From: Mobula hypostoma
Taxonomy: Eukaryota
DNA: 64,000 bases
Direction of reading: 5' to 3'
NCBI RefSeq assembly: GCF_963921235.1
Contig: NC_086108.1
Coordinates: 83,144,001 to 83,208,000 of the forward strand
This document shows, piece by piece, positions 1,731 through 30,603 of the stretch (its first letter is position 1; every line of letters begins with the position of its first letter). The position numbers and the translations under genes are program-made. The notes beneath the pieces were generated by a model. That model saw only the letters and a program-made list of their open reading frames with translations, was not told the DNA's origin and made no database searches.

Positions 1731-1802
1731 CTTCTCTTGCATAACTGACAGACGCCAGCTCTGGATTATAGTTGGTTTGCTGTGGATGGACTCTCATGTT
1801 TC
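1731..1802 (-). CDS. Putative coding exon 3 (G-NMRVHPQQTNYNPELASVSYARE)
   Basis: Acceptor cctttcttattgtag| and donor AAG|gtgatt. 72 nt, phase 1-1, open in the frame set by exons 1-2. Confidence 0.65.
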
Positions 1803-2289
1803 CTACAATAAGAAAGGAACGTTACAATGTTACAAGTTCCACTCATTGCTTTTCATTACAGAAGAGGTATTTTGAACTTCTTGCATCATGTAACCAAACA
1901 GATAAGACTCCAGAATGTAATTTAAAACTCAGGGATTATATTCTGAAAGTGAACGTGCCTTTTGAAAAGTGATCACAAATCATTCTTGTAGCTATACCCA
2001 CTACCCTCAGAACGTTACAGTTTAGAATCCTGCACATTGCAGTTATCAATGTTTCCAAAAACCCATTGAAAGAATTTAGATGAATCCAGGGTAGTTCATT
2101 AATCAGTAGTACATTTATCCTAGGAGCTGCTAGGCAATCAAACTTCTACTTCTGAGAGCACTGTATCTACTTTGGAGAACTTTAATTACAAAACATTTAT
2201 CCACAGCAATTACGTAATTATAGTTTTAAATCTTCCTCAGGAAAAATGCCAGCTGTGTTCATTACTCATTCTACTGGAAGGATGGATGG

Positions 2290-4716
2290 GTTCAGAAAGA
2301 TTGGGGATAGTATAGTCAGGAGAATAGACAGAGTTCTCTGTCACAAGGTTAGAGTGTCCCAAAGGCTTGTGTTGCCTGCCTGGTGCCCAGGTTCTGTACA
2401 TTCTCATCTGACTTGCAGAGGAATTTGCAGTGGGAGGGGAAAGATCAGTCGTCGTAGTCCATGTGGGTACAAACGACATAGGTAGAATGAGAAAAGAGGT
2501 TCTGCTAAGGGAATTTGAGCAGCTAGGGATTAAATTAAAACACAGAACCAAAAAGGTGGTAATCTCTGGATTACTAGCTGAGCCACGTGCAAATTGGCAT
2601 AGGGTCAAGAAGATTAGAGAGTTAAATACATGGCTCAAGGATTGGTGTGGGAGAAGTAGGTTTGAATTCATGGGAAATTGGCACCAGTATTGGGGAAGGA
2701 GGGAGCTGTATCAATGGAATGGGCTCCACCTGAACCATGATGGGACCTGGATCCTAGCGAATCGCTTTAAACTAAATAGTAGGGTGGTGGGTTCAACAGA
2801 TTGAAGAAATATGGATAAAGTAAAAGAGATAAAGAAAAAGCAAAAGATAGAAAAAGAGAAAAGTAAGAGTGGAGTGAAGAAAAGTCAAGTGCAAAAGAGA
2901 AACAGGTTACAAGATTTTAAAAGCACAATGACTGGAAGGGCACTTTATCTGAATGCCGTAGTATTCGAAATAAGGTCAGTGAACTTGTGGCACAAATCAG
3001 TACAAAGGGGTATGATTTAGTGGCTATTACAGAGACATGGTTACAGGGTGGAGAGGATTGGAAATTAAATATCCAAGGATATCAGGTTATACAGATAGAC
3101 AGGGAGGTGGGGTAGCACTCCTAATTATGGATGAGATCAGGGTGATAGTGAGAGACAATATAAGATCTAAGGAGCAGAATGTTGAATCCATCTAGGTAGA
3201 GATTAGGAATAGTAAAGGGGAAAAAAATCGCAGGTGGGAGTTGTCTATTGGTCACTGAATAATAACATTACGGTGACACTGATAATAAACAGAGAAATAT
3301 GTGAGGCATGTAAGAATGGGACAGCCATTATCCACATAAATTGGGTAAATCAAGTCGGTCAAGGCAGTCTTGAGGAGGGCTTCATAGAATGCATCCATGA
3401 TGGCTTTCTTGAACAGTATGTTACTGAACCTACAAGGCACTATCTTTCACTGTGCTATCTTAAATCTGGTCCTGTGCAATAAGACAGGTAAAATTAGTGA
3501 TCTTGTAGTTAGGGATCCTCTTGGAAAAAGTGATCACAGTATGCTTGAGTTTCTCATACAAATGGAGCGTGCAATAGTTCGATCAAAGACCAGTGTATTA
3601 TGCCTAAACAATGGAGACTACAATGGGATGAAGGAGAATTTGGCTAGTGTAGATTATGAAAAGAAGCTAGTACAAAATATAAAAACAGATAGTAAAAGTT
3701 TTTATAATTATATAAAGAGCAAAAGGGTGACTAAAGTGAATGCAGGTCCCGTGGAGAACGAGAAGGGGGAATTTATATTGGGTAATGAGGAAATAGAAGA
3801 GAGTTTGAATGACTATTTTGTGTTGGTCTTCATGGTGGAGGACATGTCTAACATGCCAAAGAGAGATGTTGTGGATATGATGGGAGGTGAGGACCTTGAC
3901 ACAATAACTACCACTAAAGAGGTACTGCTGAGCAAATTTGTGGGCCTGAAGATAAATAAGTCCCCTGGTCCTGATGGAATGCATCCCAGGGTACTGAAAG
4001 AAATGGCGGAAGTTATACTAGAGGCTTTTGTGATAATTTACCAAAATTCTCTTGACTCTGGGCAGGTCCCAGCAGACTGGAAGATGGCAAAAGTCGTGCC
4101 ACTGTTCAAAAAAAGGATGTAGGCAAAAGGCAGGTAACTATAGGCCAGTTAGTTTAACATCGGTAGTTGGGAAAATACTTGGAACTATCATTAAGGAAGA
4201 AATAGCGAGGCAGTGCAGTGGAGGTTCACCAGGTTGATTCCAGAGATGAGGGAGTTAGACTATGAGGACAGATTGAGTTGCCTGTGAATGTACTTGCTGG
4301 AATTCAGAAGAATAAGAGAAGATCTTATAGAAACATATAAAATTATGAAAGGGATAGATAAGATAGAGGCAGGAAAGTTGTTTCCACAGATAGGTAAGAC
4401 TAGAACTAGGGGATGTAGCCTCAAGATTTGGGGAAGTAGATTTAGGACAGAGATGAGGAGGAACTGCTTTTCCCAGAGAGTGCTAAATCTGTGGAATTCT
4501 CTGCCCAATGAAGCAGTGGAGGCTACCTCAGTAAATATATTTAAGACAATGTTGGATAGATTTTTGCGTAGTAGGGGAATTAAGGGTTATGGGGAAAAGG
4601 CAGGTAGGTGGAGATGAGTCCATGATCAGATCAGCCATGATCTTATTGAATGACAGAGCAGGCTCGACGGGCCAGATGGCCGATTCCTGTTCCTGTTTCT
4701 TATGTTCTTATGTTCT
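2290..4716 (+). mobile_element. Degenerate CR1 LINE with ORF1 SGNH-esterase remnant, endonuclease and partial RT; internally deleted
   Basis: VVVHVGTNDIG...GLHLN (esterase), ITETWL and LGKSDH (APE endonuclease), KSPGPDGMHPRVLKE, YRPVSLTS, CR1 C-terminus RVLNLWNSLP, 3' tail (tatgttct)n. Confidence 0.9.
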
Positions 4717-5316
4717 TAAAGATAATCTAAGCGAATCAGCTCAAACTGGTTAGAAAGTCGCCCAAAAAAGTGTTTTAACCTCATTTACTGCAAGATTTAA
4801 AATTCATGAATTAGTTATCTATTCATGGAGAAACACAAACATGAAGTCTGTTATCTTGTCATGTATTGTTTTGTATCCCATTGGATTAAAAAATCTTTCT
4901 AATTTGTCAGATTTACTACAGCATAATTTTTGATACTATTTTGTTTAGAGTTATAAGTTTATTCTCTTAAACTTGCAACTATAAACAATAGAGTAGCACC
5001 AACAAACAATTGAACAAGTAGTCCCAGTGGATGACAACTTGTTGCCCCAAAACACCATTATCTAATAGTTAGACAAAAATAAAATGCTGTGGATAACAGA
5101 AATCTGAAACAAAGTATGAAAAATTTGCCAGAAATACTGAATGATGATTAACATTGAAAGATAATTATAAGATTAGAAATTCTAATTGACCTGAAATGTC
5201 CTCACTGCTTCTCTCTCTGTGGTTGGTGCCTGTCCACCATGTTCTGCCCTTATTCACAAATGGTATTGATATACTACGTTGGTGAAAGTGAGATCACAAG
5301 ACTATACCTGTTAATC

Positions 5317-5598
5317 ATTCAAGCAACACACATCAAAGTTGCTGGTGAACACAGCAGGCCAGGCAGCATCTCTAGGAAGAGGTACAGTCGACGTTTCAGG
5401 CCGAGACCCTTCGTTAGGACTAACTGAAGGAAGAGTTAGTAAGAGATCTCTTCCTTCAGTTAGTTCTGACGAAGGGTCTCGGCCTGAAACGTCGACTGTA
5501 CCTCTTCCTAGAGATGCTGCCTGGCCTGCTGCGTTCACCAGCAAATTTGATGTGTGTTGCTTGAATTTCCAGCATCTGCAGAATTCCTGTTGTTTGCG
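5317..5598. mobile_element. Palindromic PLE-derived mini-element (inverted terminal-repeat pair)
   Basis: Arms 5317-5435 and 5448-5566 are reverse complements with 4 mismatches. The element is flanked by the direct repeat ctgttaatcattca (5308-5321, 5599-5612). Arms match PLE terminal repeats at ~14240-14362 and ~34341-34480. Confidence 0.85.
5462..5497 (+). ncRNA. Minimal type I hammerhead ribozyme motif (PLE type)
   Basis: agtt-CTGACGA-agg(gtctcgg)cct-GAAA-CG-TC-gact: conserved core, 3-bp stem II, stem I agtt/gact, palindromic ACGT replacing stem III. Confidence 0.7.
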
Positions 5599-6699
5599 CT
5601 GTTAATCATTCAGTTAGTTAGTAAAGAGAACCTTAAGGATAGAGAGGTATTTTGTGACAATCTAAAAGAATTCACATTGTTTATTAACAATAATTTGCTA
5701 TGGTTTGAGTTTGCTAGAATATTTGTGAAGTTAAATGAAGCAGAAATGGGAAATCAGATGAGATGATGTCAACATGGGTCCATAGCTAAGTGTCTTGGAG
5801 AAAAATGAAATCAGACCATGGGTGCTAATTTTAGTTTGTTTAAAAGCACGTACAAGGTACTCAGTTATGTCTGCTGTACAACCATTTAACATCTCATGTG
5901 ACTTTCTTTGCTTAAAAGCAAGATAGCTCTGTATTTTTGATTTGTAATGTTTTGTCCACAAACCTACAAGGAATTTAAGCTTGTATACGAACATCTCTTG
6001 TGCTGAATCTATTTAAACATTTTAACAAATGTCTTTTCTACAAACATTTGTTGTTTTTTGTTTATTTGTACAAATACCACGTGCATTATTTCTGAGTTGA
6101 TTTGAGCTGAATTTTTGGTTTTCATATGACTTAAACTATGAATTTCCTTTGGATTCATGAGAAAATATTGGCACTTTGAAATCAATGCAGGGATTAATCA
6201 TTCTAAGCTGAAGTGTGAAAATGGTTGTTGAGAATGTTCTTTTCGATTAAGATCGTGCATCTAGGAATAAGAAAAAGATTGAACTGAATTTTTAAGTAAC
6301 AGTGGTTTGATTTAACCAAACCTCACTTGTGAAATGATGAAAAGAAGGAAGAGTTTACTTTCTAAACTTTTAGCCTTGAAGTTTTGCTATGGCAACTGAT
6401 GTGCAATTCATTCTAATTAGGTGACTAAATTCAGCATTGCTTTAGCCAGTTAAATTTTTTAATATAATCTTTTTAAATTAATTTGAATGATTATAAAATA
6501 AATACTCCTAATTTGCCAAGATGTAGTCTTACATAATTAACGTAGACAATAATCATTAATCCTTCCCTTATCCAGTAGGTTCAACTAAACAAATCCTGTG
6601 TTCTTCTACAATAGCTTAAGTATAATTTCCATAAGTTCCTATGAACACTGACTAAATCAGGTAAGTACCTCAACCATCCAAGAAAATACTACACTAATT

Positions 6700-8640
6700 C
6701 AAATTCGCCAACAACGCTATCGTTGTTGGATGAATCACAGGCGGCATTGAGTCAATTTACTGGAGCGAGATAGGTCTCCTGGTTGAGCAAAAATAATTGC
6801 TCACTCAATGCCAGCAAAAGGGCTGATTGTTGACTTCAGGAAGGGGAAGGAGGGTGAACATGTGCCCGTCTACACAGGGCAATCAGTGGTCGAGAGAGTC
6901 AGTGGCTGAAAATTCCTGTGTATCAACATATCTGATGACACAGCACATAGATGCAGCCACATGAAAAGTGTGCCTTTGCTTTCTGAGGAGTTTAAGGAGA
7001 TTCAGTTTAATATTGAAAACTAACAAACTTCTACAGATGTACCATTGAAAGTATTCTAATTGGTGGCATCATAGCCTGATATGGCAAATTGAATATGCAG
7101 GAACATAAGAAGCTGCAGAAAGTAGTGCTCAACATTTCATGGACACATCTTCTCCATTATTGTTAGCGTCTACAGGGAACATTCCTCAGGAAGGCAACAT
7201 CTTAAAGGGGCAGGTTATGCCTCACAAGCCTGATTGAATTATTGAGGGAAGTAATAGAATCAATTGATGAAGGTAGAGTAGAGAATGTGGTCTATATGGA
7301 TTTTAGTAAGGTGCTTACCCTTGTTCGGCTCATTAGGAAATTCAGGAGGCATGAGATCTAGGGAAACTAGATTCAGAATTGACAGAATAGTATTGGATGG
7401 AGCATATTCTGCCTGGAGGATGGTGTCCAGTGGTGTTCCACAAGGATCTGGTCTGGGACCCTTGCTCTTTGTGATTTTGTAAATGATTTGGATGAGGAAA
7501 TGGTGGGGTGGGTTAGTAAGATTGCAGATGACACCAAGGTTGGTGGCGTTGTGGATAGTATAGAAGTTTGTTGTTGGTTACAATGGAGCATTGACAGGAC
7601 ACAGAGCTGGGGTGAGAAGTGGCAGACGGCCTTCAATCTAGAAAAGTGTGAAGTGATACACTTTGGAAGGTTGAACTTGAAGTCTGGATATAGGGTTCAT
7701 GGCAGGCCTCTTAGAGGTGAGGATCCTTCAAAGTTGCCATGAAAGTTGAAAGAGTGGTTAAGAAGGTGTATAGTGTGTTGGGAGATTGAGTTAAAGAGCC
7801 ACAAGGTGATTTTGCAGCTCTATAAAAATCTGGTCGTCTCATTGTAGGAAGGTTGTGGAAGGTGAAGAGAAGATTTGCCTGGAAGCTGCGTGGATTAGAG
7901 AGCACGTCTTATGAGGAAAGGGTGGGGAGGATGAGAGGTGACGATAGATCTGTACAAGATGATAAGAGACACAAACAGAGTGAACAGCTTATGCCTTTTT
8001 ATCTGGACAGAAGTAACTAATACAAGAAGGCAGAATAATAAGATGGTTGTAGGAAAGCATTTGGGGGGAATGTCAGAGGTTGTTTGTTTACACAAAGAGT
8101 GGAGGGTGTGTGGAATGCCTTGCCAGTCTGGTGTTAGAGGCAGAAACATCAGACACATTTAACAGGCTCTTAGGCAAATGTACAATAAAGAAAATGGACA
8201 GCTATGTTGGAGAGAAGTATTAGATTGATCTTGGAGTAGGTTAAAAGGTCGGCACAACATCATGGGCATGGGGTCTGTACAATTTTCTATCTACATCACA
8301 GAACCGGGGCTATGCCAGCTTATCACAGTTTCAATCAGGAAGGAGGTACAGAAACCTAAAGTCCCATACTGACAGGTTCAAGAACAGCTACCTCCCCTCA
8401 ACCATCTGTCAAAATCCTATGCACTACAGTGCAACATAGAAACACTATGACCACTTCGCACTAAAATGGATTTCTTTTATTCCAATTATGTTTTCCTGTA
8501 AAAAGTTATGTACAATTTATGCTTTTCTTTTGAATGTTGCTTATATGATGCTCTGCATCTATGATACTGCTGCAAGTAGGTTTTTCACTGCACTTCTGCC
8601 TACATGCATTTGTGCATGTGACAATAAACTGGACTTTGAC
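6700..8640 (+). mobile_element. Degenerate Rex1/Babar-type LINE 3' half, split by a CR1 fragment
   Basis: KFA(DD)..VVG and LIVDFRK motifs at 6700-6850. The SGRRYR...RFKNSY C-terminus resumes at ~8335. Confidence 0.65.
7205..8290 (+). mobile_element. Degenerate CR1 RT/3' fragment nested in Rex1
   Basis: SGVPQGSGLGPLLF, KIADDTKVGG, CEVIHFG motifs and a CR1-type 3' UTR. Confidence 0.85.
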
Positions 8641-9424
8641 TAGAAGGTCAGCATCTGGAACAAAGTGATTGCACAAGTTCATTCTACAAAGAGAAATGAC
8701 CTAGCTCACTCATCATATCCTCATAAGACACGCTCTCTAGTCCAAGAAGCCTCCTGTTAATTTCATTCTAGGACAGAGAGAGGTGCATAGCATTATGGAG
8801 GGTTATAGCAGAGAAATGGGTCCTTTGGCCTACAGGGTCTGTGCTGACCAATAACCACTTTATCACCCCACACCTGATACACAAACCAAACATATTGTTA
8901 AATAAGGTCTGTTTAATGGGAACGCTTTGAAGAATGTGTTACTTATTGCAAAACACCTCTGATGTACATTTGGCCATTATGATAATATGGTTATTTCAGT
9001 TACATTTCTGTTCATGATTTTGCTAATGATGCAAAACTGACCACAGATATTCTTAAACATCAAGGGGAGATGGCCTTTTTCTGATACCTAGATGCCAGTA
9101 ATGACATACCCCACATGTAAACCAAGCTTCTACAGGATCTGGAGCTAACTGTGATGGAAATGTTTAAGGATATCCTCAGCCCAATCCCTCCAATTTATGT
9201 TGGGGGAAGGACATTGAAATAACAGCTCACAAGGGGAACTCTTCCCTGAGAAATTCATGAAGACTTGTGATTGGTTTCCAATAATCACAGCTTCCACGTT
9301 CTGGTGCAACTCAGTTCTTGCCTTCAAATCCCATTGACTTCAACTTTATTCAGTATCAATCACTCGTGACTTGCATCTGTCCATAAACTCTCATTTGATT
9401 CTTTTGCCTCTCACTGACACTCAG

Positions 9425-9610
9425 GAATAACTTACAGTTGCTAAGTTGATGTACTACTTACATCATTTTGGGATGTAGAAGGAAACCTGGCAGAAGTCCA
9501 AACGGACTCATGGGGAGAACATGCAACCCTCAGTCAAACAAACCCCTGAGGTCAGGATTGAATCCAAGACTCTGGAGGTGTGAGGCAGCAACACCAAGTG
9601 CTGTGGAACA
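9425..9610 (-). mobile_element. tRNA-derived V-domain-type SINE (HE1-like), degenerate
   Basis: ggatgtagaaggaaacc...ggggagaacatgcaa...ggattgaatcc pattern shared with the SINEs at 22277 and 37200. Confidence 0.6.
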
Positions 9611-10136
9611 ACCACACTCCCTTCAAAGGTAACTAATCTTACTTCCATTTTCTGAAACTCATCCAAGGCAGGCAGAGTTCAAAAGTAAACCAAACTCTTG
9701 ATATGAACATCAACAAAAAGCAATTTCCTGCAATTCACTTAATAATGAAATTTCTGTATTGTTTAGAGATTTACAATTTTGTGCAAGCTGATATCTCCTA
9801 TCTAAGGTGGCACAGCCATTTACTTTTAGCTAATTCTTTACAATCAAACATATCATTAAGTAAAACTTGTTTTATTTAACTATTTCTCTTTTGGCTCCTC
9901 CCATTTTCTCCAAACTCACAGTGTACCCATGGGCACCTGCATGGACCCTAGCTATGCCTGACTTTTCGTTGTCAACATGGAACAGTCCATATTCCAAGCT
10001 TTCTCTGGTAATACTCCCCAACTTTTTCTGCATGACACTGACAACTGCTTTGGTGCTGTTTCATGCACCCATGCTGAGCTTTGTCAATTTCATCAACATT
10101 GCCTTCAACTTCCACCCTGCTCGTAAATTCACTTGG

Positions 10137-12662
10137 TATCAATCAGAGTCTCCTCGAGATTCTAAATATATGAATGATTTTTTAGATAAGTTAGACTTCC
10201 CTCAGATTTCACAGGATATGTCTTCTTTATTAGATACTTCCATTACAATGGATGAGATTAAGAATGTTATTTTTTCTATGAATCTGGGGAAAGCTCCTGG
10301 CCCTGATGGGTTTACCGTTGAATTTTATAAATGTTTTGCTTCTTTATTGATTCCTTGGCTCTATAAGGTTTTTGAGGCTTCTTTGAAACTTGGTAAACTT
10401 CCGGAATCTTTTAATAGAGCATCAATTTCTTTAATACTAAAGAAGGATAAAGACCCTGCTCAATGTGCATCTTATAGACCAATATCTTTATTAAATGTTG
10501 ATTCTAAAGTTTTTTCTAAGTTATTAGCAAATAGACTAGAAAAAGTACTTCCTTCTATTATTTCGGAAGACCAAACGGGTTTTATTAAAGGTCGTTACTC
10601 TTTTTATAATATTCGTACATTGTTAAATATCGTTTATACTCCCTCACAAAATGTTCCTGAGTGTGTTATTTCTTTAGATGCCGAGAAAGCTTTTGATAGA
10701 GTAGAATGGCCTTATTTATTTAAGGTGCTTGAAATGTTTAATTTTAGCTTGAAATTTATATCCTGGATTAAACTGTTATATCACTCCCCTGTAGCCTCGG
10801 TTCGTACTAACTCCTTAAACTCACCTTTTTTTCCTCTCTTTCGTGGTACTCGACAAGGCTGTCCTCTTAGTCCCCTATTATTTGATATTGCATTAGAACC
10901 TCTTGCAATTGCTATTCGAGAATCTTCAAATATTACTGGGATAACTCGGGGATTAAAGTCCCATAAATTATCACTCTATGCTGATGATTTACTTTTATAT
11001 ATTTCTAATCCTGAGAGATCCATTCCTGCTGTTTTAGAGTTATTAGCACAATTTGGTCTTTTCTCAGGTTATAAATTAAATCTTAGTAAGAGTGAACTTT
11101 TTCCGATTAATAAACATCTTCCCTTATATTATAAATTTCCATTTAAATTGATTAATAATTACCTTTCATATCTTGGGATTAAAATTACTTGTAAACATAA
11201 AGATTTATTTAAGACTAACTTTTTACCATTAATAGACCACATTACTCAACTTTCATCTAAATGGTTTCCCTTATATTTAACTTTGATTGGTCGTATTAAT
11301 GCAGTTAAGATGTTTTTTTTGCCAAAATTTTTATATGTGTTTCAGGCATTACCAATTTTCGTTCCTAAATCTTTTTTTGATAAAGTTGACTCTAAAATTT
11401 CTTCATTTATTTGGCAGAATAAGAATCCGAGACTGGGTAAAATACATTTACAGAAAGCTAAGAGAGATGGAGGTTTAGCATTACCTAACTTTAGATTTTA
11501 TTATTGGGCTATTAATATTCGACATATGAAATTTTGGTTACTTGACCGGGACATACTATCTATTCCTAAATGGGTAGCATTGGAATTACAATCTGTTCAG
11601 GGTTATACACTTGGTTCTATTTTAGGTTCCTCTCTTCCTTTTGATTCGAAACGCCTTAAGCAGGTCTCTAACCCGATAGTTAAATATGCTTTGCGCATTT
11701 GGTTTCAATTCAGAAAATTTTTTGATCTTAATCAATTCGGGTTAGCGATTCCTATTTTAGGTAACATATTTTTCCCTCCCTCTTTTACGGATCGCGCTTT
11801 TCAAACTTGGAAGACTAAGGGTATTTTACGGTTTTTGGATTTATTTTTAGATGGTTCCCTTATGTCTTTTGAACAATTATCTAATAAATATAACTTATCA
11901 AGAATACATTTTTTTAGATATTTACAAGTTAGAAATTTCCTAAGTACTATACTTTCTTCCTTTCCAATACTTCCTCCTATATATATTTTAGATTCGATAA
12001 TTAACCTTAATCCATGTCAGAAAGGTGCATCGGCTATGATTTATAATATTATTATGAAACTTAGGAAAGCTCCATTTGATAAGATTAGGGTAGATTGGGA
12101 ACAGGAATTGGGGCTTACCATTTCTGTGGATGATTGGGGGCAGATTTTACAATTAGTTAATACTTCCTCTATTTGTGCTAAACATTCCCTAATTCAATTT
12201 AAAGTGGTTCATAGAGCACATATGTCCAAAGATAAGTTAGCGCGTTTTTACTCGCATATTAATCCTTTCTGTGATAGATGTTCGGGGCAGATAGCCTCTT
12301 TAACTCATATGTTTTGGTCTTGCCCCACTTTGGAAACTTTTTGGAGAGATATTTTCAATATTATTTCTAAGGTATTAAATATAGATATCTCTCCTCACCC
12401 TATTACTGCTATCTTTGGACTACCTAAAATTTCTAGTAATCTTTCCCCTTCAGCCCGTAGAATGATTGCATTTCTTACTTTAATGGCGAAAAGATGTATT
12501 TTACAATATTGGAAAGAGCTTAATGCTCCAACTACCTTTTTTTGGTTTTCTCAGACGATTTTATGTTTGAATCTGGAGAAAATTAGAAGTAACCTTTATG
12601 ATTCTTCATTTAAATTTGAACAGATTTGGGGACCTTTTATTCGATATTTTCATTTAATGTAA
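10137..12662 (+). CDS. L1 ORF2 fragment (RT + C-terminal CCHC-like region), ~840 aa with no stops, lacking the endonuclease
   Basis: KAPGPDGF, YRPISLLN, LDAEKAFDRV, GTRQGCPLSP, LYADD, YLGI, CDRC..HMFWSC within ORF 9867-12662. Confidence 0.85.
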   Translation, partial: YQSESPRDSKYMNDFLDKLDFPQISQDMSSLLDTSITMDEIKNVIFSMNLGKAPGPDGFTVEFYKCFASLLIPWLYKVFEASLKLGKLPESFNRASISLILKKDKDPAQCASYRPISLLNVDSKVFSKLLANRLEKVLPSIISEDQTGFIKGRYSFYNIRTLLNIVYTPSQNVPECVISLDAEKAFDRVEWPYLFKVLEMFNFSLKFISWIKLLYHSPVASVRTNSLNSPFFPLFRGTRQGCPLSPLLFDIALEPLAIAIRESSNITGITRGLKSHKLSLYADDLLLYISNPERSIPAVLELLAQFGLFSGYKLNLSKSELFPINKHLPLYYKFPFKLINNYLSYLGIKITCKHKDLFKTNFLPLIDHITQLSSKWFPLYLTLIGRINAVKMFFLPKFLYVFQALPIFVPKSFFDKVDSKISSFIWQNKNPRLGKIHLQKAKRDGGLALPNFRFYYWAINIRHMKFWLLDRDILSIPKWVALELQSVQGYTLGSILGSSLPFDSKRLKQVSNPIVKYALRIWFQFRKFFDLNQFGLAIPILGNIFFPPSFTDRAFQTWKTKGILRFLDLFLDGSLMSFEQLSNKYNLSRIHFFRYLQVRNFLSTILSSFPILPPIYILDSIINLNPCQKGASAMIYNIIMKLRKAPFDKIRVDWEQELGLTISVDDWGQILQLVNTSSICAKHSLIQFKVVHRAHMSKDKLARFYSHINPFCDRCSGQIASLTHMFWSCPTLETFWRDIFNIISKVLNIDISPHPITAIFGLPKISSNLSPSARRMIAFLTLMAKRCILQYWKELNAPTTFFWFSQTILCLNLEKIRSNLYDSSFKFEQIWGPFIRYFHLM

Positions 12663-18655: not shown

Positions 18656-18703
18656 CTTCAAAAGGTACCTCATTGGGCACAATGCTAACTGGTCATTCAG
18701 GGA

Positions 18704-20003
18704 TGTTTCCATCCAGGGGGTCAGTGTGGACATGGTGCAGGATTACAAATACCTGGGGATATGAATTGACAATAAACTGGACTGGTTAAAGAACACTGAG
18801 GCTGTCTGCAAGAAGGGTCAGAGCCGTCTTTATTTCCTGAGGAGATTGAGGTCCTTTAACATCTGTCGGACGATGCTGAAGATGTTCTACGAGTTTGTGG
18901 TGGCCAGTGCGATCATGTTTGCTGTTGTGTGCTGGGGCAGCAGGCTGAGGGTAGCAAACACCAACAGAATTAACAAACTCATTCGTAAGGCCAGTGATGT
19001 TGTGGGGATGGAACTGGACCCTCTGATGGTGGTGTCTGAAAAAAGGATGCTGTCCAAGTTGCATGCCATCTTGGACAATGTCTCCCATCCACTACCTAAT
19101 GGACTGGTTGGGCACAGGAGTACATTCAGCCAGAGACTCATTCCACCGAGATGCAACACTGAGCGTCATAGGAAGTCATTCCTGCCTGTGGCCATCAAAC
19201 TTTACAACTCCTCCCTTGGAGGGTCAGACACCCTGAGCCAATAGGCTGGTCCTGGACTTATTTCCTGGCATAATTTAAATATTACTATTTAATTATTTAT
19301 TGTTTTATTACTATCTAATTATGGCGGGAGGAGAAGATGGCAGTGCACCGCACATGCGCAGCTCTCCGGTGAAAATGATATTGTATCTGTTAAATAGGGG
19401 CCGTGGACAATTCTGATTTGATGGAGAATGGAAGTGAAAGCACAGAGGAACATCTGGAGAAATTTCTGAAATGCCCGTTCGCTGCTGTCATTACTGTGTG
19501 GTCGGGAATCTTTCGGAGGGTAGGCCTCAAAATTCCCGGCCTTGCCTGCTTTTGGCGAACGAGAAGGAGGTCAAATCGTTCGGACAGAGATGGCGCTCAG
19601 TACTCGGTGTCGGAGAGCTGATCAGAGCTCGAAGTTTTCAGATGACTCAGAGTCGGATTGTGGTCGGCAGGGCAGGGAGAGTTTTTCTTCCTTCTCCCAT
19701 CTGCGTGAGATGTGGGACATTTGAGAAACTTTGAACTTTACTGTGCTCACGGACTTCTTCATCAAGTTATGGCATTACACTGTTTGTAACTATATATTAT
19801 AATTATGTAGTTTTGTCGGTTTTTTCAGTCTTGGTTTGTCCACCCGGAGGAAATAATGTATCATTTCTTAATGCATGCATTACTAAATGACAATAAAAGA
19901 GGACTACGTGTCTTCATAATCATCATTTTTATGGTACAACTGTAACGAAAACCAATTTTCCTTGGGATCAATAAAGTATGACTATGACTATGACTATGAC
20001 TAT
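18704..20003 (+). mobile_element. Rex1/Babar-type LINE 3' fragment with (ATGACT)n tail, interrupted at 19324-19926
   Basis: YKYLG..IDNKLDW, KKGQSRLYFLRRLRSF, SFLPVAIKLYN. Confidence 0.85.
19324..19926 (+). mobile_element. Non-autonomous ~600-bp retroposon, copy 1
   Basis: Starts gcgggaggagaagatggc and ends aataaaagaggactacgtgtcttcataatcatcat. Near-identical to 60732-61324. Confidence 0.8.
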
Positions 20004-20104
20004 GGAGCTTTATCCAGAGAACATTTAATCTCTGAAGTTCTCTACCAAAGAGGCTTAATTGTTATAATTAATTTTAATTAGTTAATTAATTATATTTAAT
20101 TGTT

Positions 20105-20985
20105 ATAGTCATAGTCATAGTCATACTTTATTGATCCCGGGGGAAATTGGTTTTCATTACAGTTGCACCATAAATAATAAATAGTAATAGAACCATAAAT
20201 AGTTAAATAGTAATATGTAAATTACACCAGTAAATTATGAAATGTCCAGGACCAGCCTATTGGCTCGGGGTGTCTGACCCTCCAAGGGAGGAGTTGTAAA
20301 GTTTGATAGCCACAGGCAGGAATGACTTCCTATGACACTCTGTGTTGCATCTCGGTGGAATGAGTCTCTGGCTGAATGTACTCCTGTACCCACCCAGTAC
20401 ATTATGTAGTGGATGGGAGACATTGACCAAGATAGCATGCAACTTAGACTGCATCCTCTTTTCAGACACCACTGTGAGAGAGTCCAGTTCCATCCCCACA
20501 ACATCACTGGCCTTACGAATGAGTTTGCTGATTCTATTGGTTTCTGCTACCCTCAGCCTGCTGCCTCAGCACACAACAGCAAACATGATAGCACTGGCCA
20601 CCACAGCATTGTCCGGCAGATGTTAAAGGACCTCAGTCTCCTCAGGAAATAGAGACGGCTCTGTCCCTTCTTGTAGACAGCCTCAGTGTTCTTTGACCTG
20701 TCCAGTTTATTGTCAATTCGTATCCCCAGGTATTTGTAATCCTCCACCATGTCCACACTGACCCCCTGGATGGAAACAGGGGTCACCGGTACCTTAGCTC
20801 TCCTCAGGTCTACCACCAGCTCCTTAGTCTTTTTCACATTAAGCTGCAGATAATTCTGCTCACACCATGTGACAAAATTTCCTACCGTAGCCCTGTACTC
20901 AGCCTCATCTCCTTGCTGATGTATCCAACTATGGCAGAGTCATCCGGAAACTTCTGAGGATGACAAGACTCTGTGCAGTTGTTGA
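20105..20985 (-). mobile_element. Rex1/Babar-type LINE 3' fragment, same subfamily as 18704-20003, tail-to-tail
   Basis: KFPDDSAIVG, KKTKELVVDLRR; (AGTCAT)n at 20105-20125. Confidence 0.88.
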
Positions 20986-21459
20986 GAATATTCAAAACAG
21001 AGATCAATAGGTCTTGGAGTAGTTAGAATAGTTAGAGAATAGGATGGTATGTCTAATATAACAAAACAGGATATTCAGTCCATTGAGATCGGGAATGAGA
21101 TGCCAAAGTAAAATATCAACCTTGACCTTATTAAATGGCAAAGCAGGTACAAAAGCCAAGTGACACCCCCATGTTTCTGTTAATTATGTACTTTAACATA
21201 TCTTGAAAGATCCAGAGGTTGAGGAAGTTCCTATTCAATCAGTTGCTCCTCAAATATCCTAAATGTAGGACAGCTTCTTCACAAAGTATATGTTACAGTT
21301 GGTTTATATATTGGTTCTATTCCTCGTGGACAAAGTTTGACTATCCAGTGTGAAGTGAAAGTGGAGTGAGGTGTTGCCAAGTAGCAAGTCAGACTCCAGC
21401 TCGGAAAGGGTGAACATCGTTTTTGCATTCTGACCCTGGTCTCAGATACTGGACCAATC

Positions 21460-21680
21460 ACAAACAAGACAAGATCTGCAGCTGCTGGAAATCCAAGCAA
21501 CACACACAAAATGCTGGAGGAACTCAGCAGGCCAGGCAGCATCTACAGAAAAGAGTACAGTCGTGCCAAGACCCTTCAACAGACGACCATCAGATGAAGG
21601 GTCTTGGCCTGGAATGTCAACTGTATTCTTCCATAGATGCTGCCTTTCCTGCTGAGTTCCTCCAGCATTTTGTGTGTGCT
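21460..21680. mobile_element. Palindromic PLE terminal-repeat mini-element, degenerate
   Basis: cacacacaaaatgctggaggaactcagcagg...cctgctgagttcctccagcattttgtgtgtg, with a central gatgaagggtcttggcctggaa. Confidence 0.75.
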
Positions 21681-21849
21681 CCTCAGATATTGGGACAAGT
21701 TTAAATACTACTATGATTTTTTTTAACGTACACTGCTGTAGACCTTTCTCCTTATTCCCTGGAATATTGGTCAGAAAATCAGAAATCATGTCCTATATGC
21801 TCCCTAAGGATTTCAGTCCATTCAAACTGAGAGAGAAGTTCTGCTCTCA

Positions 21850-22220
21850 GTTTATTCAAAGTTCAACATGAACCTTGACATTCATTTTCTTGCAGGCAGT
21901 TACAAAGAAAGAAGAAATACAGTAGAATTTTACAAAAAAAAACAGGCAAAGACTGACAAACACCAATGTGCAAAAGAAGATAAAGTGTGGAAATAAAGTT
22001 CATACTGAGAACATGAATTGTCAAGAGTCTCTGAAAGAGAGTCTGTAGATCACAGAATCAGTTCAGAGTAGTGGTGAATAAAGTTATTCACACAGGTTCA
22101 AGAGCCTAATGGTTATTGGATAATAACTGTTCCTGAAGCTGGCGGTGTGGGATCTAAGTCTTCTGTGCTTCCTGACTGATGGTAGTAGCGAGAAGAGGAC
22201 AAGGACTGGAAGGCCTTTGA
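21850..22220 (-). mobile_element. Rex1-type 3' end remnant
   Basis: aactgttcctgaa...cttctgt..ttcctgactgatggtag, similar to the Rex1 ends at ~15600 and ~63630. Confidence 0.5.
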
Positions 22221-22276
22221 CTCAGGAGCTTCGACTATGCAGCAAAATGATGAAGTATTATAAAAAGTTAGAGAGG

Positions 22277-22530
22277 GCACGGTAACGTAACGGTTAGCCT
22301 AGTGTTTTACAGCACCAGAGACCTGGGTTCGATTCCCATCATGGTCTGTCAGGAGCTGGCACATATTCCTTATGACCATGTAACTTTCCTCTGATTGCTC
22401 AGATTTTCTCCCACATTCCAAAGACATATAGGTCAGTAGGTTAGTTGGACACATGCGTGCAGTTGCGGGCACAGGCTCATTGGGCTGGAAGGCCCTGTTG
22501 TCATGCGGAATCCCTAAATAAATAAATATT
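22277..22530 (+). mobile_element. Full-length tRNA-derived V-domain-type SINE (HE1-like)
   Basis: A-box-like ggtaacgtaacgg, B box gggttcgattccc, central ttctcccacattccaaagac, CR1-like tail gggctggaaggccctg and (TAAA)n. Confidence 0.75.
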
Positions 22531-25269
22531 AATCCTTATGATAGAACTTTACAACATAGAAAGAAATCTTTCAAACTAACAGATCTTCAAAAGACAGTCC
22601 AATTTAAGTGACAACATATTCTCCCTTAACTGAAAATTTATATTTTATTTATTAGTTCCGGAGATGCTGACTTTCCTGACATTTATACATCCCTATATTA
22701 AAGAAGCGCATGGCCAAGTGGTTAAGGCGTTGGACTAGCGATCTGAAGAAGCAGTTAGTTAGGTGTTCACCACATTGCTGAGAGAACTTTTTAAGCTAGA
22801 TTTATTTAAATAATTGAGTTTAAATTCCATAAGCATTTGATTGGTGTCTTAGACTATGAGTTCAGTGATCATTCATCATCATTATGTGTTGTATGACATA
22901 GGCACTCATGGTCTCCGTAACCATGATTGTTCTTGTCAAATTTTTCTATGGAAATGGTTTCCCATTGCCTATTGCTGGGTAGCGTCTTTACAAGATGGGT
23001 GACCCCAGCTATTATCAATGCTTTTCAGAGATTGTCTGCCTGGTATCAGTGGTCACATAACCAGGACTTGTGATATGCACCAGTCACTATTATGACCATC
23101 CACAACCTGCTCCTATGGCTTCACAGGACCCTAGGTTGTTGGGGGGGTGGGGGTGAAGCTAAGCAAGCACTAAACCTTGGCCAAGGGTGATCTGCAGGCT
23201 CGTGGAGGGAAGGAGCCTCTCCCAACTCCTTTGGTAAAGATGTATCTGCACCCTGCTACCCAAACCACATTACCAAACCCTAAGTTCACTCTCAAATACA
23301 TGGCCAATTACCTTCTGAGACTTCCTGCATAACTGGACTCAATCAAGATTTCAGATATCGTATATCTGTCATTATCAGTTCTCTGTGCAAAAGATTTCCA
23401 CATTTCATTCTAGTTCTTAATTATTTTAAATCTTTGGCCGGGTTATTGGCCTACATGCCAGAGGAAAGTTACCCATCTACTTATTCTGCAAACTATTAAT
23501 TGGTTTTGAATCCCATTCATATATAGATGATTTAAAGGATAATTGACTATTAAGCAAAATACCTTAGAGGCAATCTTTGAGGCAGTGCTCCCAGAGGAGC
23601 ATTTAACACAGTGAAATCACTTTATATTTGAACATGTAAAATTACTAATGAATGAATCACAATTTTATGCAATTTATTCTTAAGAATGAAAAGCAAACTA
23701 GCTACAAAGTAAATAGGATAACCCAATTCACTGAGGAGCCTTGAAACTGAATAAACATTTATTTATGCAAACAAAAACAGCATTGTTTCCATATTTTAGC
23801 TGACTGGATAGGAAATATAAGTCCTCCGATTCAGGGAATTGGTGTAAGTTACACACATCATTCTTCCCTTTCATGAATAGTTCATAATCAGCATCCAGGA
23901 AGGGGCAAATTGCTCGAAGTTATAAAGGATTGAGAAGCCAGTTATATAGGAAGTCTCAGAGGGTAATTGGACATACTGTATATGTGAGAGTGAGTTCAGG
24001 ATTTGGTGGCATGAATCACTGGATTCATAGTCTAAGACTCAGATCAAATCCCACCAGGCCATAGGGAATTTAAAGTCAAGTATTAAAATAACTCATTTTT
24101 TTAATGGTGGTCTCAGTAATGGTAACTATAAAGCAAATTAAATATAAATAGAAAATACTGAAATGCTTGGTAGGCCAAGCGGAAAAGGACTCACAGCAGA
24201 CTCAGTGGGCCAGATGACCTAATTATGATCCTATGTCGAATGGTCTTATGGTCCTATAAGATGTGAGAGCAGAAACAGAGTTACCAATTGAAGTTAGTAA
24301 TCTTCAGACTGAAATTCCTATTTGGTTTATTCCAGACCGTATTTTATTTCATCCCATTTTATTGTTGCAAGTACTAAATGAATTATAACATAAACCCTCA
24401 ACAAGTCACGACAGATGCCACTTGATAAAGAGAAATTGCAAATATTTCATTAACATTTTCCCTAATTAATTGCCTCTCATTTTTCAACATCTTTTCCATC
24501 ACTGTTTCTCCTGTGATCAAAGTGTATAATCACTTGAAGCATTTAAGACAAGATTACACCACAAATAATGTTCATTATGCCTGATCTCATAGCTATGACT
24601 TAACCCTCAGACTGCAAAGAGCTCCAGGGAACTCTAGGCAAGATTGTTTATGGTTTAAAAAAAGATAAACACTGAAAACATTAAAATAAATCCTAACATG
24701 ACAATTAATACTCAGGTGCTTTACTGCCACAATATTAATCTTGCGAATGTGACAATTCCTCAGGCGAATGCTTATGTGTTTTTCCCTAAAGACCATCGCT
24801 GAGCAGAAGCTCCATAGTTTTCTATATATAACAGAAAATGCTAAAAAGCTCAGACATAATTCTATTTCATTTGTCTATTCTAACTTTATTGTTGTGCATT
24901 GTAGCTAAAATGAGAGATCTGCTCAAATTGACTTTACTTCAAAATGCAAAATTAATGTCAGAAATTGGTGTGTGTGTCATTTTAGTTTGCAAATTTTGTG
25001 TACAAATTGTGAAGCCACAAAAAATATTGGAAAACCTTTCTTTAAAAGATTGTTAGAGCTAACTGCAAATTTTATGCAGACGCTTATAACCTGTAGGAAC
25101 CTGTCTTAGCAGTATTTGAGGTGCTTCCCAGTGATTCTGAAAGGAGATAAGGTAAGAATTATTGCACTTCATATCAAAGCAACATTTGACTGAGCATTGA
25201 ATTAAACAGTGAATCAAGGAGAAAGCATTCCAATGGTTGGAGCCATACCTTGCACAAAGAAATTGGCTG

Positions 25270-25650
25270 TAAACACAGAGATTCTACAGATACTGGAAAT
25301 CCAGAGCACTCAGCAGGTTAGGCAGCATCTATGGAGAGGAATAAAAGATCAACATTTCGGGCAAGACCCTTCACCAGGATTGGAAAGGAAGGGGGAAGAG
25401 GCCGGAGCAAGAAAGGAAGGGAGGGAGAGGAAGGAGTACAAGCTGCAAGATGATAAGTGAAGCTAGGTGAGGGAGATGGTAGGTGGATACAGGAGGAGGA
25501 ATGAAGAGAGAAGCTGGGAGGTGATAGGTGGAAAAGGTAGAAGGCTGAAAAAGATGGAACCTGATAGAAGAGGAGAGTGGACCATTGCGGAAAGGGAAGG
25601 AGGAGGGGCAACAGAGAGAGGTGATAGACAGATGAGAAGAAGAGAAGCGT
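25270..25650 (-). mobile_element. PLE terminal repeat (solo), degenerate hammerhead
   Basis: Similar to 34341-34760; core reads CTGGTGA...GAAA on the minus strand. Confidence 0.7.
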
Positions 25651-26313
25651 AAGATGGTTGTGGTTGTTTAAGATCAATCATCCCATTTCTAGTGAGTGCA
25701 TTAATGCAAGAGTTCCTCAAACTGACATCCTAGTCCTAACCATTAATGAAGCTACTTATTTAATGATCTTCCTTCCATTGTAAGGTCAGAAGTGTGGATG
25801 TTTGCAGATGATTACAGGATGCATCAAGCAAATGAGGATTGAGCAGGAATCAAGGTGGAGTTGAGCCTAAAGCTGAACTGAGGCCAGCACCACTTCTGTG
25901 CTGGAGATGAGATCAGGGCTGGGGTGGGTCCAGGCCAGTAATAAACTTAGTGTTGTGAGAAAAGCCAGTCATGAGTCTGGGTCTTAGAATCAAGCTGGAC
26001 ATGAAAATGAAGCACCTTTAAGCCAAGTTCCATGACTGTGAGCCTGAGGATGTTGTGCTAAGATTGGGCTGGGAGAAAGTGTGAAGCTGCGATTGGCTGG
26101 AGATGAGCCAAGGATTGGAATCAGGCCAGGGGTCAACCTGCGGCCATTGAGTGCTAGGGTCTGCAATTGGGCCATGCAGACCTGGCTCTTGCAAAGGCAC
26201 TCTGTTTATATTATATTTAAAATCAGAGGCAGCAAATGGTTTATAGAAATAAAAATGAAGTGAAGTCACCTTTTGTAATCCTTGTTAAAATGGTTTATTT
26301 GCACAGGATGTAA

Positions 26314-28792
26314 ATAGAAACATAGAAACATAGAAAATAGGTGCAGAAGTAGGCCATTTGGCCCTTCGAGCCTGCACCGCCATTTATTATGATCATGGCT
26401 GATCCTCCAACTCAGAACCCTGCCCCAGCCTTCCCTCCATACCCCCTGACCCCCGTAGCCACAAGGGCCATATCTAACTCCCTCTTAAATATAGCCAATG
26501 AACTGGCCTCAACTGTTTCCTGTGGCAGAGAATTCCACAGATTCACCACTCTCTGTGTGAAGAAGTTTTTCCTAATCTCGGTCCTAAAAGGCTTCCCCTC
26601 TATCCTCAAACTGTGGCCCCTCGTTCTGAACTTCCCCAACATCAGGAACAATCTTCCTGCATCTAGCCTGTCCAATCCCTTTAGGATCTTATACGTTTCA
26701 ATCAGATCCCCCCTCAATCTTCTAAATTCCAACGAGTACAAGCCCAGTTCATCCAGTCTTTCTTCATATGAAAGTCCTGCCATCCCAGGAATCAATCTGG
26801 TGAACCTTCTTTGTACTCCCTCTATGGCAAGGATGCCTTTCCTCAGATTAGGGGACCAAAACTGCACACAATACTCCAGGTGTGGTCTCACCAAGGCCTT
26901 GTACAACTGCAGTAGTACCTCCCTGCTCCTGTACTCGAATCCTCTCGCTATAAATGGCAGCATACCATTCACCTTTTTCACCGCCTGCTGTACCTGCATG
27001 CCCACTTTCAATGACTGGTGTATAATGACACCCAGGTCTCGTTGCACCTCCCCTTTCCCTAATCGGCCACCATTCAGATAATAATCTGTTTTCCTATTTT
27101 TGCCACCAAAGTGGATAACTTCACATTTATCCACATTAAATTGCATCTGCCATGAATTTGCCCACTCACCCAACCTATCCAAGTCACCCTGCATCCTCTT
27201 CGCATCCTCCTCACAGCTAACACTGCCACCCAGCTTCGTGTCATCCGCAAACTTGGAGATGCTGCATTTAATTCCCTCATCCAAGTCATTAATATATATT
27301 GTAAACAACTGGAGTCCCAGCACTGAGCCTTGCGGTACCCCACTAGTCACCGCCTGCCATTCTGAAAAGGTCCCGTTTATTCCCACTCTTTGCTTCCTGT
27401 CTGCTAACCAATTCTCCACCCACACCAATACCTTACCCCCAATACCATGTGCTTTAAGTTTGCACACTAATCTCCTGTGTGGGACCTTGTCAAAAGCCTT
27501 TTGAAAATCCAAATATACCACATCCACTGGTTCTCCCCTATCCACTCTACTAGTTACATCCTCAAAAAATTCTATGAGATTCGTCAGACATGATTTTCCT
27601 TTCACAATTCCGTGCTGACTTTGTCTAATCATTTCACCGCTTTCCAAATGTGCTGTTATCACATCCTTGATAACTGACTCCAGCAGTTTCCCCACCACCG
27701 ACGTTAGGCTAACCGGTCTATAATTCCCCGGTTTCTCTCTCCCTCCTTTTTTAAAAAGTGGAGTTACATTAGTCACTCTCCAATCCTCAGGAATTAGTCC
27801 AGAATCTAACGAGTTTTGAAAAATTATCACTAATGCATCCACTATTTCTTGGGCTACTTCCTTAAGCACTCTAGGATGCAGACCATCTGGCCCTGGGGAT
27901 TTATCTGCCTTTAATCCCTTCAATTTACCTAACACCACTTCCCTACTAACATGTATTTTGCTCAGTTCCTCCATCTCACTGGACCCTCTGTCCCCTACTA
28001 TTTCTGGAAGATTATTTATGTCCTCCTTAGTGAAGACAGAACCAAAGTAATTATTCAATTGGTCTGCCATGTCCTTGCTCCCCATAATCAATTCACCTGT
28101 TTCTGTCTGCAGGGGACCTACATTTGTCTTTACCAGTCTTTTCCTTTTTACATATCTATAAAAGCTTTTATAGTCCGTTTTTATGTTCCCTGCCAGTTTT
28201 CTCTCATAATCTTTTTTCCCCTTCCTAATTAAGCCCTTTGTCCTCCTCTGCTGAACTCTGAATTTCTCCCAGTCCTCAGGTGAGCCACTTTCTCTGGCTA
28301 ACTTGTATGCTTCTTCTTTGGAATTGATACTATCCCTAATTTCTCTTGTCAGCCACGGGTGCACTACCTTCCTTGATTTATTTTTTTGCCAAACTGGGAT
28401 GAACAATTGTTGTAGTTCATCCATGCAACCTTTAAATGCTTGCCATTGCATATCCACCGTCAATCCTTTAAGTGTCATTTGCCAGTCTATCTTAGCTAAT
28501 TCACGTCTCATACCTTCAAAGTTACCCCTCTTTAAGTTCAGAACCTTTGTTTCTGAATTAACTATGTCACTCTCCATTTTAATGAAGAATTCCACCATAT
28601 TATGGTCACTCTTACCCAAGGGGCCTCTCACGACAAGATCGCTAATTAACCCTTCCTCATTGCTCAAAACCCAGTCCAGGATAGCCTGCTCTCTAGTTGG
28701 TTCCTTGACATGTTGGTTCAAAAAACCATCCCGCATACATTCCAAGAAATCCTCTTCCTCAGCACCTTTTCCAATTTGGTTCACCCAATCTA
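26314..28792 (-). mobile_element. Young 5'-truncated CR1 LINE
   Basis: Tail (ctatgttt)n at 26314-26336, CR1 3' UTR, intact ORF2 segment. Confidence 0.93.
26412..28784 (-). CDS. CR1 ORF2 fragment (endonuclease C-half + complete RT), 790 aa uninterrupted
   Basis: [65 protein letters not shown]. Confidence 0.88.
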   Translation of the reverse strand: MNQIGKGAEEEDFLECMRDGFLNQHVKEPTREQAILDWVLSNEEGLISDLVVRGPLGKSDHNMVEFFIKMESDIVNSETKVLNLKRGNFEGMRRELAKIDWQMTLKGLTVDMQWQAFKGCMDELQQLFIPVWQKNKSRKVVHPWLTREIRDSINSKEEAYKLARESGSPEDWEKFRVQQRRTKGLIRKGKKDYERKLAGNIKTDYKSFYRYVKRKRLVKTNVGPLQTETGELIMGSKDMADQLNNYFGSVFTKEDINNLPEIVGDRGSSEMEELSKIHVSREVVLGKLKGLKADKSPGPDGLHPRVLKEVAQEIVDALVIIFQNSLDSGLIPEDWRVTNVTPLFKKGGREKPGNYRPVSLTSVVGKLLESVIKDVITAHLESGEMIRQSQHGIVKGKSCLTNLIEFFEDVTSRVDRGEPVDVVYLDFQKAFDKVPHRRLVCKLKAHGIGGKVLVWVENWLADRKQRVGINGTFSEWQAVTSGVPQGSVLGLQLFTIYINDLDEGIKCSISKFADDTKLGGSVSCEEDAKRMQGDLDRLGEWANSWQMQFNVDKCEVIHFGGKNRKTDYYLNGGRLGKGEVQRDLGVIIHQSLKVGMQVQQAVKKVNGMLPFIARGFEYRSREVLLQLYKALVRPHLEYCVQFWSPNLRKGILAIEGVQRRFTRLIPGMAGLSYEERLDELGLYSLEFRRLRGDLIETYKILKGLDRLDAGRLFLMLGKFRTRGHSLRIEGKPFRTEIRKNFFTQRVVNLWNSLPQETVEASSLAIFKRELDMALVATGVRGYGGKAGAGF

Positions 28793-29979
28793 CAAATCAC
28801 AACCATTGGATCCTGTTTTTGCCAAGTCTAAAAAAATTGTAGCTATAAGGGAGGTTCGGATAGTTTCCAACTATTTGTGTTGGAATAAGGAGGCAAAACT
28901 AAAGCTGATATATATATATATAAAGTATGAGAGCTCAAATTTTGTAAAACAGGAATGCCATCAAAAATCAGGCAGCATAAATTCGAAGCAAAAAGCCATC
29001 TGCTGGGGTAACTCAGCTGGTTGAACAGCACCTCTGGGTGGTGAGGTAGATTAGTTTCAACTTCATTGTCATTGTGCCGAGACCAGATACAAAGCCAATG
29101 AAATGCAATCAGCATCTGACCAGAAGTGCAAAAGAGTAGTATTATTTACAAAACAACTGCGAATAAAAAGTAAGTGCTACACATACAAATATAAAAGTAC
29201 TGAGACAGTCCAATATGGGTGCAATACTGCTTAGTGCTTAGGGGCAAAGGAACAGCTAAGATTTTAGATCAAAACCCTGTATCAATTCAAAACATTGACA
29301 ATTACTGTTCCCCCCACCCCGCCAATACTGCTTGACCTGCAGATTGCTTCAGATTACAACATCTGCTGTCTCTTGTGTCTCTGCATGCATAGTAATTGTG
29401 AGAAAGATTGGAGGTAAAACATTTTCATTGGTAGGGTGGTAGTGACTTGCAGACAGTTTTTAGTTTTGCATCTCTACATCTTGCATCTCTACATGTAAAG
29501 GAATTGTTGGAGGGATCAGAGGAAGATGAGAAAAAACAGATTCACTTGTAGAGTGGTAGACTGGAAGTAGAGTAGAGGCAGAAACCCTCATCATATTAAA
29601 ACTGTGCTTGGCTGTATCCTGATGAGCTGTGCCTGGCAGATCTCCATAAGGTTCGATCAGGTCATTGTGCTTCATTGCAGAGATGCTGGGCTAAATGATT
29701 CCTTCTCTGTTGTAAATTCTGTATCGTTTTACCATTCTGTCCTAAAATATGCTTTGTTCATTGCTGATGTAATTATGTGCACACAGTGTGAGAGCAGATA
29801 ACAATAACAGTAAGGTGAATCACAGCAGAAGGTTTCTGAACCAGTCTCCTGATGAGCTGAACTTCACCAGGAAATGTGCGAGAACACTGCAAAACATGTC
29901 AAGTCTAGATGCTGGGAGTTATTTATGCGTTAAATGACAAGCACAAAATGAGTTATAAGGTAAGAGAAGATGAGTTTAT

Positions 29980-30290
29980 AAGATTAGCTTTATTTGTCAC
30001 ATGAACATCAAAACATCGAAACATACAGTGTAATATGTAGTTTTGTGTCAATGACTGACACAGTCTGAGAATGTGCTAGGGGGCAGCCCACAAGTGTTGT
30101 CACCATTCTGGTGCCAACAAAGCATGCCCACTACTTGCAAACCCCAACCCTAACCTATTCGGCTTTGGAAAGTGGGGTGAAACCCATGTGGTCACAAGCA
30201 GAACATGCAAACTCCTTACAGCCTGCAGTGGGAATTGAACCCCAATCGGTGAGCACTGAGTGTTGTGCTGACTGCTACTCTATCCTGTCA
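29980..30290 (-). mobile_element. tRNA-derived SINE, degenerate
   Basis: agattagctttatttgtcac tail and gggaattgaaccc B box; similar to 37200-37500. Confidence 0.6.
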
Positions 30291-30455
30291 ATAGTGTGAG
30301 AAGATTGAACATTGCCACTGCACATCTCCTCCATTTAAGGGAGGTACATAAACCAAAGTATATTTAACATGAGGTCTAATACTTAAAAAGGGTATAAACA
30401 TTGGTGCCAAGCTGTTAAAAGAACAACAGAACCAGAAAGAAATTATTGTACCTAC

Positions 30456-30603
30456 CTAATGCACCTGCACCGAGAAAGATACCACCCACTGCATCAGCCC
30501 CACAATAACTGGAGACTCCCAAAATAATGCAGCCCGCCACGATTGAAATGGCTGAACACGACACCCGCAGGCAGTAGAACTGGTTGAGACTAACACCGTT
30601 CAT
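30456..30603 (-). CDS. Putative first coding exon of an unidentified small membrane-protein gene (MNGVSLNQFYCLRVSCSAISIVAGCIILGVSSYCGADAVGGIFLGAGAL-G)
   Basis: The ATG at 30603 has an in-frame TGA immediately upstream. The exon is 148 nt (49 codons + 1) and ends at TTAG|GTAGGT. The sequence is non-repetitive, the peptide is hydrophobic, and it joins in frame with the 14625-14693 exon. Confidence 0.75.

Follow-up and report, generated by a model that had tools for sequence, protein, structure and literature searches.

Gene structure

The stretch analysed here, referred to as the window, comprises 64,000 nt of contig NC_086108.1 of the ray Mobula hypostoma (positions 83,144,001 to 83,208,000, forward strand). 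Its minus strand carries the first three of five coding exons of a gene that is, with near certainty, kinocilin (KNCN, Pfam PF15033). The last two exons were located on the same contig, left of the window (genome coordinates are given with the prefix G000:C50). From 5' to 3', the gene consists of the following parts.

30456..30603, minus strand: KNCN coding exon 1, 148 nt, with the ATG; residues 1-49; predicted helix 1, loop and first half of predicted helix 2
14694..30455, minus strand: intron 1, 15,762 nt, GT-AG, phase 1
14625..14693, minus strand: KNCN coding exon 2, 69 nt; residues 50-72; end of predicted helix 2 and amphipathic stretch
1803..14624, minus strand: intron 2, 12,822 nt, GT-AG, phase 1
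1731..1802, minus strand: KNCN coding exon 3, 72 nt; residues 73-96; RVHP at 76-79; GT donor at its end
1..1730, minus strand: first part of intron 3 (8,271 nt), the only part inside the window
G000:C50:83137396-83137459, minus strand, left of the window: exon 4, 64 nt, AG acceptor and GT donor
Left of the window, minus strand: intron 4, 4,687 nt
G000:C50:83132639-83132708, minus strand, left of the window: exon 5, 70 nt, AG acceptor and terminal TAG

A preliminary description of the window had reported a three-exon gene of an unrecognised family. The positions and lengths of its three exons were exact, its two phase 1, GT-AG introns (given as ~15.8 and ~12.8 kb) agreed with the measured lengths, and the acceptors of exons 2 and 3 were AG and pyrimidine-rich, as described. 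The spliced frame was open and equal to the 96 residues claimed, a TGA stands immediately 5' of the start ATG, and both remaining reading frames of the three spliced exons contained stop codons. The exon count was revised to five: exon 3 lacks a stop codon and is followed by a GT donor, and two further exons were located beyond the left edge of the window, exon 4 at a distance of 6.5 kb and exon 5 at 11.3 kb. Joined, the five exons gave a coding sequence of 423 nt (140 residues, no internal stops) over a coding span of ~42 kb, which provides a complete KNCN model in this genome.

The genome was searched with the kinocilin of Mobula birostris, and eight matches were obtained. Five of them were collinear on this contig's minus strand (E 2.4e-23 to 3.1e-4; exon 2, 4.8e-8; exon 3, 2.4e-6), and the other three were elsewhere with E of ~2 or more. 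Exon 1 with its flank matched a single place across the 3.48-Gb genome.

The matches of many relatives started or ended at residues 50, 74-75, and 97 of the profile, and fish and mammalian gene models that appear to read on into introns broke at residues 50, ~74, and ~97, which are the junctions found here. As the mammalian models of this kind depart at these positions too, the ray and mammals likely have their first three intron positions in common; the mammalian likeness came from models of otter, pig, and marsupial origin and from unnamed read-through proteins. The mouse gene is reported to have four exons (PMC6141681), in contrast to the five coding exons of the ray, and the human gene extends over ~6 kb, compared with the 42 kb coding span here.

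Family assignment

Exon 1 alone matched PF15033 with 39.7 bits (E 4.5e-10; Pfam gathering cut-off 27 bits), so the family described as unrecognised could be named. The 97-aa relative from Hypanus sabinus scored 87.7 bits, and exons 2 and 3, at 23 aa each too short for such a search, had no Pfam match when searched singly. A protein search with exon 1 (49 aa; targets of 87-2000 residues) gave 161 of 172 candidates at E ≤ 1, and statements on family and length cover the best 120 of the 161. All 120 carried PF15033, and the best match was the H. sabinus kinocilin (100% identity), whose protein cluster also contains the 140-aa kinocilin of M. birostris. Exon 1 alone gave no usable match in the ESM Atlas.

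A profile search against 1.84 billion representatives returned 92 matches at E ≤ 0.001. Ten were looked up: eight were named kinocilin or kinocilin-like (teleosts, axolotl, bullfrog, marsupial, otter, and pig), one was a hypothetical frog protein, and one was unnamed. No invertebrate or jawless fish occurred among the named matches, most of the 92 carrying no looked-up name. A sequence search of the PDB with a 30-sequence profile gave four matches, all with E ≥ 1, and thus pointed to no relative of known structure.

Identities to six full-length named kinocilins were 138/140, 83/140 (Callorhinchus), 76/138, 71/137, 73/138, and 66/133. The closest, M. birostris XP_072130724.1 (140 aa), is of equal length and differs at residue 90 (S here, P there) and residue 108 (K here, E there); exon 1 was identical in 49/49 positions, exon 2 in 23/23, and exon 3 in 23/24. 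H. sabinus XP_059841217.1 (97 aa) was identical in 94/97 positions over exons 1-3, including 49/49 in exon 1. It ends one residue past exon 3, without the 43-residue tail of exons 4 and 5, and probably represents either a truncated model or a different isoform; the comparison thus offers evidence that this record was probably cut short. Many other public kinocilin models were intron read-throughs. The gene itself is not new: annotations under the name kinocilin already exist for two other rays and a chimaera.

It is exceedingly improbable that the open frames arose by chance or belong to a dead copy of the gene. The three exons are not chance, because the best 120 of the 161 exon 1 matches all carry the same family; moreover, the five exons are intact, with canonical splice sites and no internal stop, and present in a single copy. 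The hairpin exons were also far better conserved than the tail exons: identity to Callorhinchus was 37/49 in exon 1 and 17/23 in exon 2, versus 7/24 and 8/21 in the tail exons. It had further been suggested that the exons may give a larger gene an alternative N-terminus that anchors its product in the membrane, and the termination of exon 3 at a donor rather than a stop would fit this. However, the frame runs through two more exons to the TAG of exon 5 and closes at 140 residues, so the three exons are not the start of a larger gene. The longest protein among the best 120 of the 161 exon 1 matches had 326 residues and matched exon 1 only, and all 92 profile matches were of 326 residues or fewer. 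The chance that such a larger gene exists is very small, and the other option offered, a small membrane protein, agrees with a product of 140 residues and two predicted helices.

Neighbourhood and orthology

The genome was searched for the DFD motif of MNK kinases, and the pattern occurred at three sites. One was on this contig and the same strand, 120 kb upstream, in an exon scoring 48.2 bits with MNK1 and 45.4 bits with MNK2. Two further MNK-type exons were found on contigs C12 and C73. The upstream neighbour was recorded as follows.

G000:C50:83265050-83295190, minus strand: MKNK1-like kinase exons (loci L011, L018, L020, L021), upstream neighbour

The kinase and C-terminal exons of this MKNK1-like gene reach down to ~83,265,080, 90 kb upstream of the KNCN ATG; altogether they lie 90-120 kb upstream of KNCN and 57-87 kb past the right end of the window, inside which no convincing MKNK1 motifs were found. 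By these exon matches, KNCN is placed in the human order, downstream of an MKNK1-like gene and on its strand; further genes may lie between the two. In human, MKNK1 and KNCN are both reported on the minus strand, with KNCN lying ~6 kb downstream (PMC12887771). A synteny probe for ATP11 gave no match, and this was uninformative, as a control probe was equally empty.

In a tree of 14 sequences, the M. birostris protein paired with Callorhinchus (support 0.999), and the tetrapods grouped together (0.958). Judged from sequence, the gene is a single-copy ortholog of kinocilin, with one locus in the genome, a species-like position in the tree, and the MKNK1-like gene upstream. The likeness to mouse and human KNCN consists of two hydrophobic helices, a glycine-rich helix 2, the R-[V/I]-H-P motif, and the position downstream of MKNK1.

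Predicted protein

Hydropathy peaks were found at residues 12-30 (2.06) and 38-60 (1.93), with no peak past residue 60, and two peaks of 1.9-2.35 were present in all six vertebrates tested. AlphaFold2, run on a 30-sequence alignment headed by the M. birostris protein, placed helices at 3-30 and 38-65, followed by a low-confidence tail (mean pLDDT 57.5, pTM 0.31). The prediction of transmembrane helices proposed in the preliminary description thus gave two hydrophobic helices by both methods. As noted there, the second hydrophobic window (residues 38-60) crosses the exon 1/2 junction, and an amphipathic segment (residues 54-65, right after the helix region) and a polar tail were also predicted. 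According to these predictions, two helices, the second of them glycine-rich, hold the 140-residue product in the membrane and are followed by an unstructured tail. Both ends are likely, if weakly, favoured to be cytoplasmic, because the loop has no Lys or Arg and the C-terminal flank has two.

In the set of 14 vertebrates, 20 positions did not vary; most are Gly, Ala, or Pro residues within the hairpin, and P70, G73, and P79 are also among them. The transmembrane hairpin with a Cys-containing loop put forward earlier was retained as to its two hydrophobic helices; of the cysteines, only C34 lies in the loop. C25 and C34 were invariant in 30 fish sequences and absent from all six tetrapods of the 14-sequence alignment, and thus do not define the family. 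Tetrapod kinocilins in general lack C25 and mostly lack C34 (one frog outside the 14-sequence set retains it), and their tail has diverged from that of the ray.

The two helices might instead form a shallow hairpin which, rather than spanning the bilayer, would shape and curve the ciliary or vesicle membrane. The loop of only ~7 residues, the glycine-rich helix 2, and the amphipathic stretch directly after it would suit such an arrangement, as would the invariance of G40, G41, G45, A46, and P57 across the 14 vertebrates. However, each hydrophobic stretch (at least 19 residues, hydropathy ~2) suffices for a full span, and the loop in fish bears Asp/Glu and Lys/Arg. The shallow hairpin was accordingly considered unlikely.

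Barttin is an accessory subunit of channels, and kinocilin could likewise be a two-helix accessory subunit of a hair-cell ion channel or transporter, similar to barttin or the TMEM238-type hairpins. TMEM238 (PF15125) and barttin (PF15462) resemble kinocilin in the overall layout of two helices plus tail and show a weak language-model likeness: when PF15033 was set aside, the nearest ESM Atlas clusters were those of TMEM238 (0.80-0.81) and barttin (0.77). These scores are, however, below 0.9, a level often reached by shuffled proteins. The profile-profile comparison, made with TMEM238 and not with barttin, detected no homology (probability 0.5%, E 0.12, 10 columns), and 11 of 60 within-helix shuffles scored equally high against TMEM238, on which grounds kinship with TMEM238 was rejected. 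Transduction currents of outer hair cells are also reported normal in the mouse knockout (PMC6141681). A subunit role is improbable.

Loci of both families occur in the genome. A barttin (PF15462) exon (L027, G000:C50:82095902-82095997, minus strand) lies on the same contig, ~1.04 Mb from KNCN, and three TMEM238-family loci were found (L024, L025, L026), two of them ~52 kb apart on C68.

Conserved motif and possible function

Exon 3 encodes RVHP at residues 76-79, after helix 2. For comparison, 233 relatives were fetched and 123 removed (30 without exon 1, 58 without exon 2, and 35 without the end of exon 3), leaving 110 proteins, which are mostly from teleosts and not independent of each other. 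[RKQ][VI]xP was found at this place in 108 of the 110 (92 RVHP, 12 RIHP, and 4 other), and the two without it were read-through models. The Ile variant occurred in 13/110, mammals included, and the background frequency of the motif in tail windows was 6/199. In the 14-vertebrate set, R-[V/I]-H-P was present in 13, the bullfrog having QVQP.

The motif resembles the (K/R/Q)VxP ciliary sorting signal, its sidedness in the ray protein being inferred only; a (K/R/Q)VxPx signal has been reported for polycystin-1 (PMC3172256). A literature search found no publication naming kinocilin together with VxP, which is weak evidence of novelty, as subscription papers were outside the search.

In the mouse, KNCN protein is described in the kinocilia of hair cells and later in the cuticular plate (PMC6141681). 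Zebrafish kncn RNA is reported to be strong in hair cells of the ear, whereas normal hair cells of the lateral line do not show it (bioRxiv 10.1101/2025.06.01.657251). Kinocilin is also given as a marker of vestibular hair cells that declines with age (PMC13337082) and has been seen in pillar cells (PMC6174830). Bundles, transduction currents, and hearing of Kncn knockout mice are reported normal up to 7 months, without a cochlear phenotype, and the main text of that paper describes no test of vestibular function (PMC6141681).

The material is, with high probability, best explained by a single-copy, five-exon ray KNCN gene, whose product, predicted to form a two-helix membrane hairpin, is probably carried by apical vesicles to the kinocilium of hair cells, as a small adaptor that is not essential. 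Following the mouse and zebrafish papers, the gene would be expressed in hair cells and its product localised to the kinocilium and microtubule-rich apical regions. The predicted hairpin would embed the small protein in the membrane of apical vesicles and of the kinocilium, where it could act as cargo or adaptor, and the conserved R-[V/I]-H-P word might be a sorting or binding site directing it to the cilium. In the cochlea, the protein would be dispensable. Taken by itself, the vesicle-cargo or adaptor mechanism is tentative and somewhat less probable than not, yet it is the likeliest of the mechanisms considered. It is doubtful, though conceivable, that R-[V/I]-H-P, which persists from rays to mammals within a diverging tail, acts as a ciliary sorting signal not reported before and that the real role of kinocilin lies in organs or animals with lifelong kinocilia, which the cochlea-focused mouse knockout would have missed; these may include vestibular hair cells and perhaps the ciliated electroreceptors that sharks and rays possess. 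The conserved four-residue word offers a cheap and direct way to test the function of the protein.

Several points weigh against this interpretation. The authors of the knockout study see in the normal phenotype evidence that kinocilin has no key part in vesicle traffic or in stabilising microtubules (PMC6141681). The kinocilin motif has Ile, not Val, in mammals, axolotl, and chimaera, and the VxP signal is itself disputed: a quantitative study reports that VxPx gave no enrichment of cargo in cilia and cites a report of VxPx having no effect on polycystin-1 (PMC5305262). Arf4 is reported as not absolutely required for the ciliary delivery of another cargo (PMC3930517). The predicted fold is weak at the mean pLDDT and pTM given above. 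Splicing and tissue of expression in this animal are taken from homology, and the XP_ records used for comparison are predicted models themselves. The assignment of the neighbour to MKNK1 over MKNK2 rests on one exon (48.2 vs 45.4 bits).

Repeats in and around the gene

The preliminary description had spoken of unique exons separated by introns filled with transposable elements. In a comparison of the window with itself, 31% of intron 1, 24% of intron 2, and 0% of the three exons were repeated elsewhere, and both introns contained reverse-transcriptase open reading frames (ORFs). Of the 112 stop-to-stop ORFs of at least 90 aa in the window, 30 were scanned against Pfam, and nine had matches: five to reverse transcriptase, one to endonuclease, one weakly to GIY-YIG, and two to ALKBH8_N. 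The two longest were the reverse-transcriptase ORFs of intron 2 (932 aa) and intron 1 (794 aa). The long interspersed nuclear element (LINE) type ORFs were the following.

9864-12662, plus strand: reverse-transcriptase ORF, 932 aa, uninterrupted; RVT_1 E 1.4e-38, weak zf-RVT; antisense in intron 2
26412-28796, minus strand: reverse-transcriptase ORF, 794 aa, in intron 1
51301-52479, plus strand, and 38911-41364, minus strand: further LINE-type reverse-transcriptase/endonuclease ORFs, fragments, by Pfam

The 932-aa ORF in intron 2 is likely a recent LINE insertion. Two ORFs in intron 1, in opposite orientations (18765-19244, plus strand; 20553-20939, minus strand), matched ALKBH8_N (PF09004) above the cut-off and are probably derived from repeats rather than exons of ALKBH8. 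A stretch in intron 3 (215-643, minus strand) had a weak GIY-YIG match under the cut-off (E 6.7e-4) and is possibly the remnant of a Penelope-like element.

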